Shown here one piece after another: positions 1,608 through 17,310 of a DNA stretch of 22,853 nucleotides; position 1 is the stretch's first letter; the number at the start of each line of letters is the position of its first letter. The translations under genes were made by a program, and so were the position numbers. Origin of the DNA: a virus; the IMG/VR virus record IMGVR_UViG_3300012835_000001, positions 1 to 22,853 of that record, one strand, 5' to 3'. The notes beneath the pieces are model-generated. The model did not search any database, had not been told where the DNA came from, and saw only the letters and a program-made list of their open reading frames with translations.

Positions 1608-2486
1608 ATGGATTGGGACGACGCGATCGCCCGCTTTGCGACGTCGCAGCGCTCGCGCGGCTACTCGCCCCGCACGGTCGACAACCGGATCGAGCTCGCC
1701 CGCCGGCTGCAGCGACTGCTCGACGACAAGCCGCTCGACCAGGTGGTCAAGCTCGACCTGCAGCAGGTGCTCGGCCGCGGCATCGCGCGCTCGTCGATGA
1801 TGCGCGAGCGCACCGACATGCAGGCGCTGTTCCGATTCCTGCACGTCGAGGGGATCATCGCCACCGACCCGGCCGCGCTCCTGGACCGCGTCAAGGGCGC
1901 CCGGCGTGGCAAGCCTCGGCCATTCACGATCGACGAGATCTCCGGAATGCTCACCTCCGGCGCCTACCGGCGCACCCGGATCATGATCGTGCTCGGCTAC
2001 TTCCACGGGCTCCGCGCGCACGAGATCGCGAAGGTGCGATCACGCGACTTCGATCTCGACGCCGGGATCCTCACCGTCGTCGGCAAGGGCGGCGTCGAGC
2101 GCGAGATCCCGATCCACTCGGTGCTGCTCGACGAGATCCCGACCATGCCGGCCGACGGGTGGTGGTTCCCCGCGCGCGGCGGCCGCGAGGGTCACATCCA
2201 CTGGAAGAGCGTCTCGGACCTGATGACGAAGGCGAAGAAACGCGCCGGCATCACTGCGCGCCGCAAGACCGGCCACTCGCTGCGCCACAGCTTCGGCACC
2301 GAGCTCGTCAAGGGTGGCGCCGATCTGCGCACGACGCAGGAGCTGCTCGGACACGCATCGCTCGCCACGACGCAGATCTACGTCGAGGTCGACCAGGACC
2401 GCATGGCCGCGGCATCCGCAGCGCTTCCTGTCCCGACGATCCCCCTACGATCCGGGCGTCGACCGCGGCAGGATGTTGTCCTATGA
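1608..2486 (+). CDS. Tyrosine recombinase / integrase 2, short Xer-like (292 aa), paralogue of integrase 1
   Basis: Catalytic motifs GLRAHEIAK, VGKGGVER, HSLRHSFG and LGHASLATTQIYVEV (full R-K-H-R-H-Y set). N-terminal core-binding domain (FATSQRSRGYSPRTV). Confidence 0.88.
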   Translation: MDWDDAIARFATSQRSRGYSPRTVDNRIELARRLQRLLDDKPLDQVVKLDLQQVLGRGIARSSMMRERTDMQALFRFLHVEGIIATDPAALLDRVKGARRGKPRPFTIDEISGMLTSGAYRRTRIMIVLGYFHGLRAHEIAKVRSRDFDLDAGILTVVGKGGVEREIPIHSVLLDEIPTMPADGWWFPARGGREGHIHWKSVSDLMTKAKKRAGITARRKTGHSLRHSFGTELVKGGADLRTTQELLGHASLATTQIYVEVDQDRMAAASAALPVPTIPLRSGRRPRQDVVL

Positions 2487-10417: not shown

Positions 10418-11656
10418 CTACTTCGAGCTCGTCTTCGCGAGGGCGGGGGCCTCGACGGGCGCGGTGAGGGTGAGCGGCGTGAACAGGTCGGGCTTCGTGT
10501 TCAGGAACGCGCCGAAGCCGGCGTAGCCGACGAGCTGGCCGAGCACGTCGGGCTCGGCGACCTGCATGAGACCGTCGACGTCCTCGTACCACTCCAGGAA
10601 CCGGGCGGGGCCGACGACCGCGGTGCCGGGCGGGAACCACGGGTCGACCACGAGCTTGATGCCCAGCACGTTGCCGGCAGCGGAGGTCGGGGTGACCGAC
10701 GGGAACACCAGGGTGCCGTTGTTGTTGACCAGGCCACCGAGCGAGCCCCAGATGTCGGGGGCCGCCCACAGCGTGTCGGGCAGCGGCGCGCCCTCGGCGA
10801 CCAGCATCGTCGCCGACGCGGCCTGGAAGAGCGCACCGGTCACGCCGGCCGCGGTCAGGTCGCCCGCGATGGGGTCGTTGGTCAGCGACGCGACGAACTG
10901 GTCGACGGCGTCGTTGTCGGTTTCGACCGCGTAGCGGTGCACGAAGTCCTCGGCGACGATCTGCATGATCCCCGGCTGGGACCACTTGATGTCCTGCCGG
11001 GAGATGTTCAGGTGGCCGGCGTAGGTGGCCGCGGCGACGGGCAGCTTGCCGACGATCAGCTTCTGCGACGCGGTGAGGTCCTTCTCCGCGGCCTGCTTGC
11101 CGATCGCGACGTGCTGGGTGATCACGGGTCGGTCGAAGCTGCCGGTGGGCAGTCGCTTCTGGCTGATCGACGAGATGAACGGGCGGTCGTTGGCGACCGC
11201 GGTGATCACCGGGCCGACGATCGGCCGCGGGATCAGGCCGGGGTTGTCGGCGGTGGTCTGGTGGGCGGTGGCGCGCTCGATCAGCTGCGCCGCCTCCTGG
11301 TCACCGCGCAGCGCCCGCCCGACGGTGACGATGTAGTCGCCCATCGTGGGGAACGCGTCGAGCAGCTCCTTGTCGGGGTCCTTCTCGCGCTCGACGACGA
11401 CGGTCGTCGAGGACTGCCGTGGCTGCTGCGGCACGCGGCCGCGCGCTTCGGCGACCTTGCTGCGGGTGACTTCGAGCTCGCTGTAGTAGTCGATCGACTT
11501 CTTGAGCTCGTCGGCCTTCGTGCGGTCGCGGTTGACGAGTTCCTGCTCGTCCTTCGTGACGTCGCGGCCCTCGTCGGCCGCGCGATCGAGGATCTCATCG
11601 ATCCCCGTCGTGATTTCCTCGAACTGCGCAGTGAGCGCGTCCAGATAGCGTCCCAT
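10418..11656 (-). CDS. Major capsid protein, HK97 fold, with N-terminal delta/scaffold domain (412 aa)
   Basis: Coiled-coil N-terminus (EEITTGIDEILDRAADEGRDVTKDEQELV...) followed by ATAHQTTADNPGLIPRPIVGPVI and the rest of a typical HK97-family capsid body. Follows the prohead protease. Confidence 0.85.
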   Translation of the reverse strand: MGRYLDALTAQFEEITTGIDEILDRAADEGRDVTKDEQELVNRDRTKADELKKSIDYYSELEVTRSKVAEARGRVPQQPRQSSTTVVVEREKDPDKELLDAFPTMGDYIVTVGRALRGDQEAAQLIERATAHQTTADNPGLIPRPIVGPVITAVANDRPFISSISQKRLPTGSFDRPVITQHVAIGKQAAEKDLTASQKLIVGKLPVAAATYAGHLNISRQDIKWSQPGIMQIVAEDFVHRYAVETDNDAVDQFVASLTNDPIAGDLTAAGVTGALFQAASATMLVAEGAPLPDTLWAAPDIWGSLGGLVNNNGTLVFPSVTPTSAAGNVLGIKLVVDPWFPPGTAVVGPARFLEWYEDVDGLMQVAEPDVLGQLVGYAGFGAFLNTKPDLFTPLTLTAPVEAPALAKTSSK

Positions 11657-11794: not shown

Positions 11795-12370
11795 TCAGCT
11801 GCGCATGCTCTCGCGCCAGGCGCGCAGCTCGTCGAGAACCGGTGTCGGCTCCTGCCCGATCACCTCGTGCTCGCGCGCCACGAGCACGCCGGCGCCGGCG
11901 TACTGCGGTTGCGGGGTGGCGGCGACGTGGTTCAACCCGGCGAGCTCACGCACACGCCGCTCGCGACCGGCGGCGCGGTCCTCGCGGGTGCGGAAGATCT
12001 TCGCGCCGACCGACCAGCCCTGCAGCTCGCCCGAGCGCGCCTCCTCGGCGAGCGGGTGCGCGCGGTTCAGCCGGAAGTCGACATACAGCCCGTCGGATGC
12101 CTCGGCCATGCCGACGCAGCGGCCGAGGAACCGGTCGCCGTCGTCGCCACGGTGCCCGACGAACAGGTTCACCCAGCGGCCGCCCTTGGCCGCGTCACGT
12201 GCGAACGCGCCGGCGGCGAACCGTTCCAGGTAGGTTGTCTTCCCGCCGTCGTCGCTGACGACCTGGTCGCGGTCGTAGGGCACGGCCAGGCCGTGCAGGG
12301 TCCACCCGTCACCGACCGGCTCCAGGACGTCGGCGGCGAGGGATCGTTCGATAAGCAATTCGCTCATCAT
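11795..12370 (-). CDS. Prohead maturation protease, HK97 / peptidase S78 type (191 aa)
   Basis: LHGLAVPYDRDQVV...ERFAAGAF...VNLFVGHRGDD...GLYVDFRL...GELQGWSVGAKI (conserved His and Ser context). ATG 12370 abuts the portal stop. The upstream part of track ORF 11795..12997 is portal sequence in another frame. Confidence 0.85.
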   Translation of the reverse strand: MMSELLIERSLAADVLEPVGDGWTLHGLAVPYDRDQVVSDDGGKTTYLERFAAGAFARDAAKGGRWVNLFVGHRGDDGDRFLGRCVGMAEASDGLYVDFRLNRAHPLAEEARSGELQGWSVGAKIFRTREDRAAGRERRVRELAGLNHVAATPQPQYAGAGVLVAREHEVIGQEPTPVLDELRAWRESMRS

Positions 12371-13626
12371 CCGACTCCAATCGTGTTGAGCTCCGCTGCA
12401 GCTGCGGCGGCCGCGTCGGCCGTCGCGTCGGTGTTCTCCGCCGCCGGTGGTGCCGCCGACTGCCCGGTCGCCGGCAGCGGGCCGCGACCGAGACGTGCGC
12501 GCGCCTCGTCGATGGTGAGGATGCCCGCGGCCGTGTAGGCGACGAGGACCTCGGCGACGGATTTCTGGTCGGCGCGCATCCGGGAGTCGTAGTCCCAGAC
12601 GACGTCGGTCCCGGCCGGCAGCTGCCACTTCGACACGGCCTCGGTGATCGGCCGCGCGAACCGGTCGACCGAGTCGCGTACGAAGTCGATGTCTCCGGTT
12701 TCGACGTTCTGGTAGGTCATCGTCGGGCCCTCGAGCCCGAGTTTCCACACCGGCACGCCCACAGCGTTCGCCACGGCCGTCGCGTTCCACTTGCGCGCCT
12801 CGATCAGTTGCGACGTCTGCGCGTTGCCGACGATTGGGGTGAGCGTCGTCCCTTCGGGAAGCACGACCGGTTCGCGGACCGACGTGATGTCGCGCCACTT
12901 CGCTTTGATGTCGTCGAGCTGCGTCTGATTCGGCACCGCCCGCACCGACAGCACCGCCGGCGGGAGCGCGCCGGCCGCGAAAGCGTCGCGAGACCACTGC
13001 TCGGCCGCCTCCACGCCGGATAGCCAGTCGAGGTGCTGCTGCAGCACGCCGCGGCCGAGGATCTCGCCCGAGCGAGCGCCGAACGCGACATGGAAGATCT
13101 CGTCAGGGTCGAACGCTTCGCCGCCGATCACCCACTGGTACCAGCCCGGGAATGCCGGGTCGGTCATGATCCAGACCTCGTCGGCCGGCAGCGGCACGAT
13201 CCATCCCGGCCGGCCCGTGCGCCAGTCGAGCTCGCCCTGCAGCGCGAAGTGGTTGCCGTAGAGGATCCCGTCCTCCGCTGCAGCCCACCGGTAGTTCCAC
13301 AGCGGCTGCAGCGGCGACGGGTCGGTGACGATGTTGGGCTGGTCAGGCAGCGGTGCCCGGATGCCGAGCGCCGGGTCGTAGCGGCGGGCGTACCACTCGG
13401 TGCCGGCGACCGCGTTGCACAGCAGGTCGACCGCGCGCCCGAAGAACGGGTTGCCCATCGCGACCTGCTCGGTCACCTCTGGCGCGCCGGGCACCTGCGG
13501 ACCGTACAGGATGTCGGCGCGGGTCGTCTTGCCCAGCGTCGACGTCGACGAAGTGATGCGATGGACGATCTGCTTATCGCGGAGTCGCCTGGCGGCGTAT
13601 GACAGGGCGACTGCGCGGGATGCCAC
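12367..13626 (-). CDS. Portal protein, HK97 family (419 aa)
   Basis: Size and position directly after TerL. GTG start with GAGGAG 8 nt upstream. Sequence pattern typical of phage portals (GNPFFGRAVDLLCNAVAGTEWY..., ...WNATAVANAVGVP...). Confidence 0.8.
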   Translation of the reverse strand: MASRAVALSYAARRLRDKQIVHRITSSTSTLGKTTRADILYGPQVPGAPEVTEQVAMGNPFFGRAVDLLCNAVAGTEWYARRYDPALGIRAPLPDQPNIVTDPSPLQPLWNYRWAAAEDGILYGNHFALQGELDWRTGRPGWIVPLPADEVWIMTDPAFPGWYQWVIGGEAFDPDEIFHVAFGARSGEILGRGVLQQHLDWLSGVEAAEQWSRDAFAAGALPPAVLSVRAVPNQTQLDDIKAKWRDITSVREPVVLPEGTTLTPIVGNAQTSQLIEARKWNATAVANAVGVPVWKLGLEGPTMTYQNVETGDIDFVRDSVDRFARPITEAVSKWQLPAGTDVVWDYDSRMRADQKSVAEVLVAYTAAGILTIDEARARLGRGPLPATGQSAAPPAAENTDATADAAAAAAAELNTIGVG

Positions 13627-13638
13627 GGCCTGAGCTCC

Positions 13639-15183
13639 TCAGTACACGAAGAAAGTCTCTGGTTCTGGCGCGCGTCCCAACGCCCATGCGGCGAGGGTAG
13701 CACTCACGATCGGCGTCTGCGGGACAGGCAGTCGGCGTTCCCACTGCCACGCCTTCCCGCTGGTGCGCTGCGCGGCGCCGGCGGCCTGGGTGGCCTTCGC
13801 GTAGGTGTCGGACTTGCGGATCCGCAGCCCGCCGGCGCGCAGCCTCGAGTCCCACGCGAAGCACGCCGCCACGATGTCCTGCGCGGTCGTCTTGACGAGC
13901 TTGCGGGCGATCGCCGGCTCGTCGCGCTCGATGTCGAGGATCAGGTCATGGCCGGGCCCGTAGTCGTCGATGCCGATCGCGTTGACCGTGGGCTCGAGCT
14001 GGCGGAGCCGGTCGAGCACCCACGACGAGCCGGGCCGGTCGTCGATGATCTCCTGCACCAGGCCGTCACGGTCGGGATCGACCGACGTCGCGGTGATCGA
14101 CGCGGACCTGTCGAACGGGTCGATGTCCACGCCGAGCGCAGCCGGCACGTCATCGGGCATGTGCAGCTCGTCGGCGCCGACGCCGGCGTTCTCCCAGCTG
14201 CTGCGCGCGATCGTTTCCCACAGCTTCACGATCGCGCCGGCGCCCGGCCACAGTCCGAAGTACTCGGCGCCGAACGACTCGGGCCCGAGCCGCTTGAGGT
14301 CCTCGCGCAGCTCTTCGATGCGGATCAGACCGTCACGGATGCCCGGATACCACTCGGCCCAGAGGTGCTCGTCGGTGACGTCGGACCCCTCTGGGATCGT
14401 GAACTCGAAGTATGCCGTCCCGGAGGTGTGGCCGGCGTCGACCGCGGCGCGGCCGGCTTCCTTCGTCTCCCACACGGCGGTCTGCTCGTTGTTCAGCACC
14501 GAGATGTTCGTGCACCGCCAGATCTGGCCGTGGCCGCGCGCGTCGCCGAGCGTCGGACCCGCCGCGGCGAGCAGCTCCTGCCCGAGCAGCCTGGTGAACA
14601 CCAGCCACTCGTCGAACGTCAGGTGCATCAGCCCGTCGCCGCGGACGCTCGAGCGGGTCGGGGCGAACACCTGGATCTGCGACGACCGCCGCAGCCGCCA
14701 GTCCTTCCCGGCCGTGGCCGGATCGATCGTCAGCGACGTGTCGCCGATCGCCTCGCGCAGCTTCACCCCGGACCGCCACACGTCCGAGCTCATCGACTCC
14801 CGGTACGGCTCGACGAGATCCTTGAGGAACCGCTGCCGCGCCTTGACGAGGTTCTGCGCGGTGTGCGCGCCGAGGAACGGCATCACCCGGCCGGTGTCGA
14901 GCACGACGGGGCCGGCGAGCGACCGGGCGAGCGGGACGCCCATCGTCGTGACCGATTTCCCGCAACGTCGGCCGACGATCAGGTCGACGTTCGCGTAGGC
15001 GAACGGGGACCCGGGACCGTCGACGCGCTCCAGGCCGACGTCGAGGACGTACTGCTGCCACCTGGTCGGACGCCGGCCGAGCTTCGCGGCGATGATCGCG
15101 CCGACCAGGCGCCCGTCGCTATAGCGGTGCGGAGATCTCGACGTCCTGATCGTCGGCAGCAGCGGCGGCGGTGTCGAGGCCAC
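13639..15183 (-). CDS. terL: Terminase large subunit (514 aa from GTG 15183)
   Basis: Walker A VGRRCGKS, Walker B-like MHLTFDEW and nuclease-domain acidic motif ALGVDIDPFD. The first ~70 codons of track ORF 13639..15393 lie in an alternate frame of the upstream gene. GTG 15183 has GGAGGAG 7 nt upstream and keeps Walker A. Confidence 0.82.
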   Translation of the reverse strand: MASTPPPLLPTIRTSRSPHRYSDGRLVGAIIAAKLGRRPTRWQQYVLDVGLERVDGPGSPFAYANVDLIVGRRCGKSVTTMGVPLARSLAGPVVLDTGRVMPFLGAHTAQNLVKARQRFLKDLVEPYRESMSSDVWRSGVKLREAIGDTSLTIDPATAGKDWRLRRSSQIQVFAPTRSSVRGDGLMHLTFDEWLVFTRLLGQELLAAAGPTLGDARGHGQIWRCTNISVLNNEQTAVWETKEAGRAAVDAGHTSGTAYFEFTIPEGSDVTDEHLWAEWYPGIRDGLIRIEELREDLKRLGPESFGAEYFGLWPGAGAIVKLWETIARSSWENAGVGADELHMPDDVPAALGVDIDPFDRSASITATSVDPDRDGLVQEIIDDRPGSSWVLDRLRQLEPTVNAIGIDDYGPGHDLILDIERDEPAIARKLVKTTAQDIVAACFAWDSRLRAGGLRIRKSDTYAKATQAAGAAQRTSGKAWQWERRLPVPQTPIVSATLAAWALGRAPEPETFFVY

Positions 15184-15502
15184 GGTCGAACTCCTCCAGG
15201 TAGGCGCGGATCCGGTCGGCCTCGTACTCGAGCACTTCGCCCTTCTCTTCGACGACCGGCTCGGGCAGCCGCGACTCGGCCGCGAGCATCTGCGCGTACA
15301 GCTGCGCTTTCGCGATGCCCTTCGCGTGCTGCGCTTCCTCGGCGAGCTCCAGCACCGCAGCGGCGATGCCCTCATGCCACGGCTGGATCGCACCCGACCT
15401 GCGCCGTGCCTCGATCGCGTCGCTCATCCGCTGCACAAGATCCGACGGTGGGCGCACTCCTCCCCACGCCTCGGCGCCGGGAAGAGTGCTCATGCCGCCC
15501 AT
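15119..15502 (-). CDS. Terminase small subunit candidate (127 aa)
   Basis: First gene after the 220-bp non-coding region and immediately upstream of, and overlapping, TerL. Helical, acidic C-terminus. Function inferred from position only. Confidence 0.45.
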   Translation of the reverse strand: MGGMSTLPGAEAWGGVRPPSDLVQRMSDAIEARRRSGAIQPWHEGIAAAVLELAEEAQHAKGIAKAQLYAQMLAAESRLPEPVVEEKGEVLEYEADRIRAYLEEFDRGLDTAAAAADDQDVEISAPL

Positions 15503-15570
15503 TATCCGCCCGGATCCACTCTCCCGGCTGGTGCGCGCGGGCGTAGCCGACTACAGTCGAGCTCACCCGG

Positions 15571-15609
15571 CCCGGCTCGCGCGATTCTCCGCGCGATCCG
15601 GGTTTTTTT
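15571..15609 (+). terminator. Canonical intrinsic terminator oriented for + strand transcripts
   Basis: CCCGG-c-TCGCGCG (15571..15583), loop ATTCTC, then CGCGCGA-t-CCGGG (15590..15602), followed directly by seven T (15603..15609). All neighbouring genes are on the - strand. Confidence 0.6.
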
Positions 15610-15670
15610 CTGAGCGTTCAGGGTAAATATCCACAGGTCGCGGGGTGTCCAAGCATCAAAGCCTCACTCA

Positions 15671-15699
15671 GAAACCGAAGCATCGAACTCGCGATGCTC
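15671..15699 (-). terminator. Weaker intrinsic terminator candidate for - strand (early operon) transcripts
   Basis: On the - strand, GAGCATCG / CGATGCTT forms 7 bp plus a G-U pair (15678..15699) with a 6-nt loop, followed by CGGTTTCTG. It lies about 25 nt after the stop of the 78-aa gene. Confidence 0.3.
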
Positions 15700-15722
15700 C
15701 TCCTCGGTCGCGCGCCCCGGTA

Positions 15723-15959
15723 TCACCACTGGTGTTGCCAGCACCGAGCGGGAGGTGTATCACCACGTCGCTTCCACACCAAGCGCTCGCACGGCCAGGG
15801 GTTCCGGGTCGCCGCACCGCACTCATTCCATGCCCAGGCCCAATCCTCAATGCAGTGGGTGCAAAGGTCCTCCGGCCCCGTCGTGTCCCAGCCCTGCGCG
15901 TCGTCCTCCTGCTCCTCTCGTTGGCAGCGATCGCAGATGAACCGAACGATCTGCATCAC
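15723..15959 (-). CDS. Small Cys-rich (zinc-ribbon-like) protein, 78 aa
   Basis: Track ORF with CDRC...CTHC pairs and a GTGA overlap with the upstream gene. Confidence 0.6.
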   Translation of the reverse strand: MMQIVRFICDRCQREEQEDDAQGWDTTGPEDLCTHCIEDWAWAWNECGAATRNPWPCERLVWKRRGDTPPARCWQHQW

Positions 15960-16282
15960 TCGCTCGGCAGATCTTGGATGCGCTGCCGGATCAGCTGGTC
16001 GAGCTGCTCGACGTAAGCCGGACCCATCCGCTGCGCCAGGCCGAGCAGCTCGGACACGATGCCGGCTACGCCGTCCATGCTCAGCAGGTACAGGGTGTCG
16101 CTGCGTTCGGTGCTCTTGTTCACGCGGCCGGTGATCTCCAGCCCGAGCATCCGCTCGACGCCCGAATCGCGCAGCCCACCGAGGGCGACGACCGTCGTCC
16201 CGTCGACGAGCACGGCGCGGCGCACGTCGACGAGTGCGTCACCGATCCCGAACGCAGAGCCGCCGATGATCTTGTCGCTCAT
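15956..16282 (-). CDS. Hypothetical protein, 108 aa
   Basis: Track ORF with 4-nt overlaps on both sides and high GC3. Confidence 0.6.
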   Translation of the reverse strand: MSDKIIGGSAFGIGDALVDVRRAVLVDGTTVVALGGLRDSGVERMLGLEITGRVNKSTERSDTLYLLSMDGVAGIVSELLGLAQRMGPAYVEQLDQLIRQRIQDLPSE

Positions 16283-16533
16283 CGGTCGCTCCGGTCGACG
16301 ACTTCGATCGCTGCGACGATGAGAGCTGCGGCCTTCACGAGCTCGACACGATCTACGCCGTGCCCGCCGGCATCGTCGCCAGCGGCATCAAGGTGTCCGT
16401 ATGCGAGGGCGAGCAGGTGGCCGGCGCCGTGCTCATCGTCATGGTCTGGTGTCCAGCTGAGCTCGGCGAGTTGGCGATCGCGCTCGAGCGTGATCGCAGC
16501 GAGCACGGGCAAGGCTTCAGGTGTCAGTGTCAT
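16279..16533 (-). CDS. Hypothetical helical protein, 84 aa (faint resemblance to the dATP/dGTP pyrophosphohydrolase-type N-terminal domain)
   Basis: Track ORF with AGGA 9 nt upstream of the ATG. The pattern ERDRQLAELSWTPDHDDEHGAGHLLALAYGHL resembles the ER.RQ...HDD.H..G.L..A.Y pattern as I recall it. Confidence 0.55.
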   Translation of the reverse strand: MTLTPEALPVLAAITLERDRQLAELSWTPDHDDEHGAGHLLALAYGHLDAAGDDAGGHGVDRVELVKAAALIVAAIEVVDRSDR

Positions 16534-16548
16534 GTGTCGTGTCCTATG

Positions 16549-17310
16549 TCATCGGTAGCGGGAGCTCACGGGTTCGCCGTTGCCGGCGACGGGTGGCAGG
16601 TTCCCGTACGGGTTGGTGGTGCGGTTGCTCTTCACCCGGTTACAGCGCGGGCAGGCGGGGATCAGGTTGTCGAGGTCGTCGGTGCCGCCGCGCGACCTGG
16701 CGGTGAGGTGGTCGGCGGTGGTCGCGCGGATCTTGCAGCCGGGTAGGCCGAGCTGGCAGCGCCGGCCCTTGATGCGCAGCACGAGCTCGCGCTTGTCTTG
16801 GGCGTAGCGGCCGGCCCAGCACGGCAGCGACACCAGGTGCCGGGACTTGCAGCGGTCGCACAGCGGCGCGAGCGGCGCGCCCCGCGCGGCACGGTCGACG
16901 CGCGCGGCGTCGAGGTCGACCACGCCGGACCAGGCCGGGATGCTCGCGGCCGGTTCGTAGCTGCGCCACCAGGCTTCGATCGCGGGATGCTCGCGGCGCG
17001 GGTCGCGGCCGCGGTCGTCGACGCGCTGGTGACACACGTCGCGCGGGGTGAGCAGCATCCAGGCGTGCGTCGCCCCGGTGAGCGACAGCGCCCGCTGCCG
17101 GGCTGTCTCGGTCGCGCCGGTGCGGACGACGATCGCGCGTGCGTCGGCGCGGCCGCCGAGCTGCTCCAGCGCCGCGGTGAACGCCGACTCGGTGCGGCCG
17201 GCCCACGGGTCGAGATCCCGGTCGTACACGGGCACGTCGAACTCGCGGCGTGCGACGGTGGACTTGCCGGCGCCGGGCGGGCCGAACAGCACGCCGACGA
17301 ACCTGGTCAT
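16549..17310 (-). CDS. Fusion protein: N-terminal P-loop NTPase/kinase-like domain + C-terminal HNH endonuclease (253 aa)
   Basis: Walker A GPPGAGKST at residues 10-18. The C-terminus CQLGLPGCKIRATTADHLTARSRGGTDDLDNLIPACPRCNRVKSN is a classic HNH with flanking Cys pairs. Confidence 0.8.
   Translation of the reverse strand: MTRFVGVLFGPPGAGKSTVARREFDVPVYDRDLDPWAGRTESAFTAALEQLGGRADARAIVVRTGATETARQRALSLTGATHAWMLLTPRDVCHQRVDDRGRDPRREHPAIEAWWRSYEPAASIPAWSGVVDLDAARVDRAARGAPLAPLCDRCKSRHLVSLPCWAGRYAQDKRELVLRIKGRRCQLGLPGCKIRATTADHLTARSRGGTDDLDNLIPACPRCNRVKSNRTTNPYGNLPPVAGNGEPVSSRYR

Follow-up and report, generated by a model that had tools for sequence, protein, structure and literature searches.

The product of one gene at positions 16549 to 17310 (minus strand) of a small actinophage genome combines two enzyme-like parts, an N-terminal P-loop domain and a C-terminal HNH nuclease module. 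The N-terminal domain belongs with the lidded P-loops of the kinase type rather than with motor ATPases, and the protein represents a P-loop/HNH family that sequence databases contain without characterization. That the two parts are paired in many uncultivated phages suggests that the DNA-packaging machine has a further component that has not been described. The occurrence of both domain orders, the adjacent-gene form, and matched C-terminal tails are observations that go beyond the preliminary description of this DNA, an initial reading of its sequence.

The fusion gene and its two domains

The gene and the parts of its product are as follows.

16549..17310 (-): whole fusion gene, 253 aa plus stop codon; the kinase-like P-loop part comes first, followed by the linker, the HNH module, and the tail
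16927..17310 (-): P-loop kinase-like domain, residues 1 to 128, placed by Pfam AAA_33, the AlphaFold2 (AF2) model, and fold and profile matches
17260..17283 (-): Walker A P-loop, residues 10 to 17, with Gly10, Pro11, Gly15, and Lys16 kept by at least 90% of family members
17215..17223 (-): Asp30-Arg31-Asp32 after strand 2, at least 90% conserved, with Asp32 aligning with the general-base Asp of a polynucleotide kinase (9drz)
17011..17025 (-): lid motif Arg96-x3-Arg100, aligning with NTP-contacting lid arginines of fungal kinases
16876..16950 (-): inter-domain linker, residues 121 to 145, pLDDT of about 55
16591..16875 (-): HNH module, residues 146 to 240, placed by alignment with stand-alone HNH proteins, conservation, and pLDDT of 92 to 97
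16639..16758 (-): HNH catalytic core, residues 185 to 224, placed by Pfam HNH and HNH_5, PHROG HNH families, and column conservation
16552..16575 (-): C-terminal tail, residues 246 to 253, predicted to be disordered, with a Ser-x-Arg-aromatic motif

The preliminary description had named a sequencing frameshift, which would make these really two genes, as a ground for refuting the fusion. In-frame third-position GC (GC3) is 0.85 to 1.0 in all 60-nt windows from codon 0 to codon 230, drops to 0.7 over the last codons, and reaches 0.55 once the 60-nt window passes the stop codon. Homologous proteins that agree with it in length and domain order are found at 99% (L002, also 253 aa), 77%, 50%, and 48% identity. 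As GC3 is even and full-length homologues exist, 16549-17310 is one gene, a single uninterrupted 253-aa open reading frame, and the reading as two genes joined by a sequencing error is rejected. The domain calls, boundaries, and genomic context of the fusion given earlier are likewise right, and all of the motifs quoted at that time are present (Walker A at 10 to 17, Asp30-Arg-Asp32, Arg96-x3-Arg100, and the HNH core). The AF2 model, built with a 108-row alignment, has a mean pLDDT of 87 and is confident for residues 1 to 120 and 146 to 230, with a weak linker (121 to 145) and a disordered tail. Its pTM is low, at 0.58, which fits two domains that have no fixed mutual orientation.

In the model, the P-loop domain consists of four parallel strands and a two-helix lid (helices 90-99 and 104-117) at pLDDT 90 to 97. 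The lid is followed by a low-confidence stretch and then a helix at 133-142, and a fifth strand cannot be excluded from the predicted model. Pfam AAA_33 matches residues 7 to 110 with an E value of 2e-6, a marginal hit at 28.5 bits, 1.5 bits above the cut-off of 27; the same family is matched by 54 of the 63 longer family members, with a best E value of 7.8e-12. The Walker A motif has the required Lys followed by Ser/Thr (Lys16-Ser17). Thirteen residues are kept in at least 90% of the family, namely, Gly10, Pro11, Gly15, Lys16, Asp30, Asp32, Trp36, Arg63, Arg71, Thr81, Arg96, Arg100, and Trp114. In this kinase group, the Asp-x-Asp motif does the job of Walker B. The suspicion that the domain might lack a Walker B element or a lid is thus disproved by family conservation and by the 9drz alignment, as Asp-x-Asp and Arg-x3-Arg are both present.

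When the P-loop family profile was searched against PDB sequences, the best natural match over the full domain was the RNA 5'-OH kinase of Lichtheimia (Mucorales), 9drz, with an E value of 1.7e-6, followed by the Rhizopus enzyme 9d8a. In the 9drz alignment, Asp32 corresponds to the Asp of an Asn-Gln-Asp motif, and Arg96 and Arg100 correspond to the lid arginines. The equivalent Asp in the Mucorales kinases (Asp36 in MciKIN) is essential, and the two arginines of their lid contact the NTP by stacking on its base and binding its phosphates (PMC11571804). Foldseek places PSTK, mammalian PNKP, fungal kinases, and the Clostridium thermocellum polynucleotide kinase in its top ranks. VIA-align gives a Z score of 10.8 and an rmsd of 3.2 A over 134 residues for the C. 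thermocellum enzyme and PSTK, with mammalian PNKP next. The likeness to small nucleotide or polynucleotide kinases proposed at the outset is therefore upheld, the nearest sequence and fold matches being polynucleotide 5'-kinases and PSTK. As adenylate kinases and PFK-2 score nearly as high as the polynucleotide kinases (Z of about 10 in VIA-align), fold alone leaves the substrate unsettled. In our reading of the sequence and the model, the domain is probably a genuine phosphotransferase of the Asp-x-Asp type, resembling polynucleotide kinases, and its substrate is a prediction.

With polynucleotide 5'-kinases, the domain has in common the Walker A motif, an Asp after strand 2 at the general-base position, the Arg-x3-Arg lid, and the core fold (Z of 10 to 10.8, rmsd of about 3.2 A over about 134 residues). 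It differs in being about 125 aa long, about 40 residues shorter than the canonical 160 to 170, and in being modeled without the fifth strand and the base-specificity loop. Identity to these enzymes is 16 to 21%, and the domain here is joined to a nuclease, with neither a phosphatase nor a ligase as partner among the ORFs scanned. Fold scores are equally good (Z of 9.8 to 10.8) for PSTK and further P-loop kinases of the Asp-x-Asp type (shikimate, gluconate, and chloramphenicol kinases), which have the same motif layout. However, their substrate-binding extensions are absent here, and, unlike this domain, they have no genomic link to nucleases or packaging genes.

The C-terminal part matches Pfam HNH (PF01844) at residues 194 to 230 (E value of 2e-10; score of 41 bits, cut-off 21.4) and 23 HNH or endonuclease VII families in PHROGs. 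The zinc ligands Cys185, Cys192, Cys220, and Cys223 are present, and the core also contains Asp200-His201, Asn215, and Asn224. Across 65 aligned HNH modules, the zinc-ligand columns are well kept (Cys185 in 64, Cys192 in 63, Cys or His at 220 in 64, and Cys223 in 60), as are His201 (63/65) and Asn224 (63/65), with Asn215 in 44. Since the alignment of the fusion with stand-alone HNH proteins of 100 to 120 aa starts at residue 145 and continues to the C terminus, the C-terminal part amounts to one whole small terminase-type HNH protein. An upstream knuckle (Cys151/Cys154/His158/Cys164, 16817-16860, minus strand), followed by a helix at 167-181, lies within the module; this Cys/Cys/His/Cys knuckle (residues 151 to 164) is seen in only 23 to 28 of the 65 aligned modules, about a third to two-fifths.

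Terminase-associated HNH proteins of the HK97 gp74 type are the subject of Kala et al. 2014, PNAS, as cited in PMC9410871, and HK97 gp74 promotes TerL cos cleavage in vitro (PMC9410871). Small HNH proteins of this terminase-neighbor type are also found at the genome end of 14- to 17-kb Gordonia and Curtobacterium phages. Shared with the gp74 type are a small zinc-bound HNH encoded beside the genes for the small (terS) and large (TerL) terminase subunits, an HK97-type portal and capsid, and a presumed aid to cos cleavage. In contrast to gp74, the HNH here sits C-terminally in a larger protein that also has a P-loop kinase-like domain, it has the additional Cys/His knuckle and ends in a conserved Ser-x-Arg-aromatic tail not found in gp74, and three small genes stand between its gene and the putative terS.

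Genome setting and recurrence of the pairing

The window, which is the whole stretch of DNA analyzed (22,853 bp), is a complete genome record that includes a 123-bp terminal repeat (22.7-kb genome) and has 69% G+C, with nearly all genes on the minus strand. The phage is a temperate siphovirus of the actinophage type; that it is temperate follows from its tyrosine integrase gene. No polymerase or other recognized replication gene is found among the ORFs scanned in the 22.7-kb genome. The features that bear on the setting of the fusion gene are as follows.

1608-2486 (+): tyrosine integrase, phrog_1, E value of 4e-43, the only clear plus-strand gene
16279..16533 (-): small gene downstream of the fusion, 84 aa, similar to segments, internal or C-terminal, of much larger PHROG families without a known function
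15956..16282 (-): small downstream gene, 108 aa, with no family matches in Pfam or PHROGs
15723..15959 (-): small Cys-rich downstream ORF, 78 aa
15503..15722: noncoding stretch of 220 nt between the small genes and putative terS
15119..15502 (-): putative terS, 127-aa ORF, assigned by position only, with GC3 of 0.84 and only a weak PHROG match, to a family without a known function
13639..15183 (-): TerL, phrog_2, E value of 9e-142 with a local TerL profile
12367..13626 (-): HK97-family portal protein, PF04860 E value of 1e-43, phrog_12 E value of 1.5e-50
10418..11656 (-): major capsid protein, phrog_2263 E value of 3.5e-44, about 30% identity to Mycobacterium phage capsids

Read along the minus strand, the order is fusion, three small ORFs, the 220-nt gap, putative terS, TerL, portal, and capsid, which is the layout in which HK97 gp74-type HNH proteins occur. 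The ORF list bears out that three small genes separate the fusion from terS, as had been noted, and adds the 220-nt noncoding stretch between them. That stretch (15503-15722) contains a 13-bp hairpin (15571-15583/15590-15602) followed by a run of seven T's on the plus strand, as well as several short repeats, and could be a candidate cos, a terminator, a late promoter, or another regulatory region. The likely start of TerL is the GTG at 15183, which is preceded by GGAGGAG, in an open frame that extends to 15393. Taken in full, the open frame shares about 275 nt with the putative terS ORF; counted from the GTG at 15183, the overlap is 65 nt. The 84-aa ORF at 16279-16533 matches phrog_9763 and phrog_6628 with E values of 1e-9 to 1e-10. 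Elsewhere in the genome, 18812-19234 (minus strand) encodes a 140-aa helix-turn-helix DNA-binding protein (phrog_22141, E value of 5e-18), the N terminus of which also matches the small-terminase family phrog_57 (E value of 1.6e-5). This protein could be the real DNA-recognition subunit, or it could be excisionase-like.

When 1.8 billion cluster representatives were searched exhaustively with HMMER, 1312 proteins matched at E values up to 0.001, and the P-loop domain is present in 108 of the best 150 of these matches. With separate profiles for the two halves, the 108 divide into 28 P-loop-first fusions, 28 HNH-first fusions, 45 stand-alone proteins, and 7 with other extensions. The tree of the P-loop domain is poorly resolved; its well-supported branches force at least two P-loop-first and at least six HNH-first state changes. 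Two scans of IMG/VR yielded about 42 distinct close-family loci, and in about 35 of these the HNH is either fused, in one order or the other, or encoded by the neighboring gene, in which case the stop codon of one gene often overlaps the start codon of the next. Where large downstream ORFs were tested with PHROGs, all 10 proved to be TerL of phrog_9. By the local TerL profile, most loci that extend far enough have TerL on the same strand, 0.3 to 1.8 kb downstream; the exceptions are L013, at 4.4 kb, and L006, in which this profile does not detect TerL. Two HNH-only loci are among the matches listed from a profile scan of genome contigs. Three distant relatives of the P-loop (L019:422-1411, L020:7995-8942, and L021:7995-8945; E values of 1e-13 to 1e-15) open 315- to 329-aa proteins that have a different C-terminal part and no HNH, and those of L020 and L021 are preceded by three large ORFs (about 564, 498, and 332 aa).

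In the ESM Atlas, clusters of 54 to 106 members commonly contain both AAA_33 and HNH; they come from Actinomycetota and tailed phages and bear automatic names only. A cluster look-up returned only metagenome singletons with uninformative names. Three different queries found no P-loop family member in 50,697 isolated phage genomes. Against isolated phages, whole-protein tblastn gave matches to the HNH part only, while the N-terminal domain and two other family members gave either nothing or an E value of 0.2 over 45 residues to rV5-type polynucleotide kinases. NCBIfam and PADLOC contain no family-level match to the fusion protein, a whole-protein search of PDB sequences gave only weak matches, to HNH domains of IscB-type proteins, and a BFVD fold search retrieved no protein spanning both domains. 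Among 301 genomes of one phylum there were zero matches at 1e-8, a weak negative with 13 candidates scored per genome. Our literature searches found no paper describing the P-loop kinase/HNH architecture. The suspicion that this architecture is undescribed is thus confirmed for the papers searched: it recurs in metagenomes and prophages under automatic names only.

Matched C-terminal tails

The fusion protein has a single tail with Arg251 and Tyr252, and the same motif ends many stand-alone HNH proteins. Among the 65 aligned HNH modules, Arg251 is found in 48 and an aromatic residue at 252 in at least 50. In phages that encode the two parts as separate genes, the HNH and P-loop proteins share 6 to 9 near-identical terminal residues, which differ from phage to phage while following a common pattern, a hydrophobic/Ser-Thr stretch and then usually Arg-x-Trp. 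Matched tails are seen in L006, L008, L009, L011, L013, L016, L030, L041, L044-L049, and L059, and no third ORF with the same tail is present in the matched-tail loci. Over 18 loci, the two proteins of one phage agree on average at 4.1 of the last eight residues, compared to 1.4 for proteins of different phages, and the observed identity total is not reached by any of 100,000 random pairings; as some of these loci are mutually related, the independent cases number fewer than 18. An exact pairing test on the first seven loci gives 1/5040.

The tail-coding stretches of L006 differ at synonymous third positions only, and those of L008 carry both synonymous and nonsynonymous differences. A fresh DNA duplication or a ribosome-binding signal as the main cause of the matched tails was considered and rejected, given the synonymous-only differences in L006 and the variation of the middle residues. 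The simplest reading suggests that the matched tails are a docking peptide that would bring both enzymes to one shared partner. From the gene neighborhood and, by analogy, the HK97 literature, our first guess is that this partner may be TerL. Where P-loop and HNH are fused, one tail would then be enough for both activities. Several HNH-first fusions (P0018, P0019, P0030, P0038, and P0066) end directly after the Tyr-Glu-Pro motif in their P-loop domain, without any tail, and a tail is therefore not a universal requirement. In the HNH protein of Gordonia phage Schiebs, a Ser-Arg-Asp-Trp motif lies near, not at, the C-terminal end.

Proposed role in DNA packaging

On balance, we favor a role for the protein as an accessory of the packaging module, in which the HNH would aid TerL at cos and the kinase-like domain would carry out an NTP-dependent step in the same complex. 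It would then combine two enzymes in one accessory of a DNA-packaging module of the cos type (HK97-like). The HNH part would help TerL to cut concatemers at cos. The N-terminal part would be a minimal P-loop phosphotransferase of the Asp-x-Asp type that has an arginine lid and most resembles polynucleotide 5'-kinases, and it would probably act during or just after cos cleavage. Its NTP-dependent step may be 5'-end phosphorylation of nucleic acid or nucleotide-gated control of the nuclease. In the fused form, the single tail would carry both activities to the site of DNA cleavage. A more specific version, which we offer tentatively and consider rather doubtful, is that a minimal polynucleotide-kinase-like enzyme, docked via a shared and co-evolving tail, acts on newly cut ends in many uncultivated actinophages. 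The main weakness of the packaging reading is that, as HNH and TerL nucleases are both expected to leave 5'-phosphates, a 5'-kinase has no obvious task at cos. Gene position by itself cannot prove a packaging role. Other points against this reading are the fold scores, which do not set polynucleotide kinases apart, the marginal AAA_33 hit, the modeled lack of a fifth strand and base-specificity loop, the tailless HNH-first fusions and gp74, and the three small genes and 220 nt before the putative terS.

The weakness just named is one of the points in favor of a P-loop that serves as an NTP-gated switch, with binding or hydrolysis of ATP or GTP licensing or timing HNH nicking in the terminase complex: the need for a 5'-kinase at cos cleavage is not evident. 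Such a switch would have an analogy in the ATP control of cos cleavage in lambda terminase, regulation in cis fits the tight and repeated fusion to a nuclease, and the domain is cut down, lacking the acceptor-side fifth strand in the AF2 model. The lid and Asp-x-Asp motifs are, however, those of true phosphotransferases, and a second substrate is suggested by conservation of at least 90% at Asp32, Trp36, Arg63, Arg71, Thr81, and Trp114. We regard a switch as possible but unlikely. It is less probable still that the protein is an end-healing or anti-defense kinase that works outside packaging, repairing 5'-OH ends made by host nucleases or toxins, with the HNH as a co-passenger in the late module. 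Phage polynucleotide kinases are known as counter-defense tools, and the nearest characterized relatives are RNA/DNA repair kinases (T4 Pnk, C. thermocellum Pnkp, and the Mucorales tRNA-splicing kinase). Yet no ligase or 3'-phosphatase partner is found among the genome ORFs scanned, and this explanation does not account for the matched tails, the repeated fusion to HNH, or the fixed place before TerL.

We give little credence to a selfish mobile HNH cassette, a homing endonuclease that has acquired a P-loop and contributes nothing to the phage life cycle. Mobility is common among HNH genes, and the P-loop tree has many changes of architecture, but the same site upstream of TerL is occupied in dozens of diverged phages, the HNH is of the small terminase-neighbor type, as in the 14- to 17-kb Gordonia/Curtobacterium phages, and both catalytic sites and the tails are conserved, the L006 tail-coding differences being synonymous only. 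Hardly credible at all is a prophage-encoded, Septu-like ATPase plus HNH defense that excludes other phages. An NTPase paired with an HNH nuclease is common to Septu (PtuA plus PtuB) and the fusion, which thus resembles PtuA/PtuB in outline, the phage is temperate, and there are weak PADLOC matches; these have E values of 0.003 or worse and cover just 17 to 38 residues of the HNH motif. The PtuA and PtuB profiles give no significant match (best E value for PtuB of 0.0094 over 38 residues; for PtuA, 0.094), and the likeness to PtuB is at the motif level only. Moreover, the P-loop here is a 125-aa kinase type and neither a large ABC ATPase, as PtuA is, nor a large AAA ATPase, and the gene lies among same-strand late packaging genes, whereas PtuA and PtuB are separate genes in defense islands.

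Terminase-associated HNH proteins are an accepted yet poorly understood third component of HK97-like packaging machines. If a second enzyme with the same tail belongs there, cos cleavage would involve an NTP-dependent step that has gone unexamined. The matched tails offer a handle for finding the binding partner and for studying how accessory enzymes are recruited to the terminase. As it is undetected in the isolated phage genomes searched, the family marks small temperate actinophages that are known only from metagenomes and prophages.
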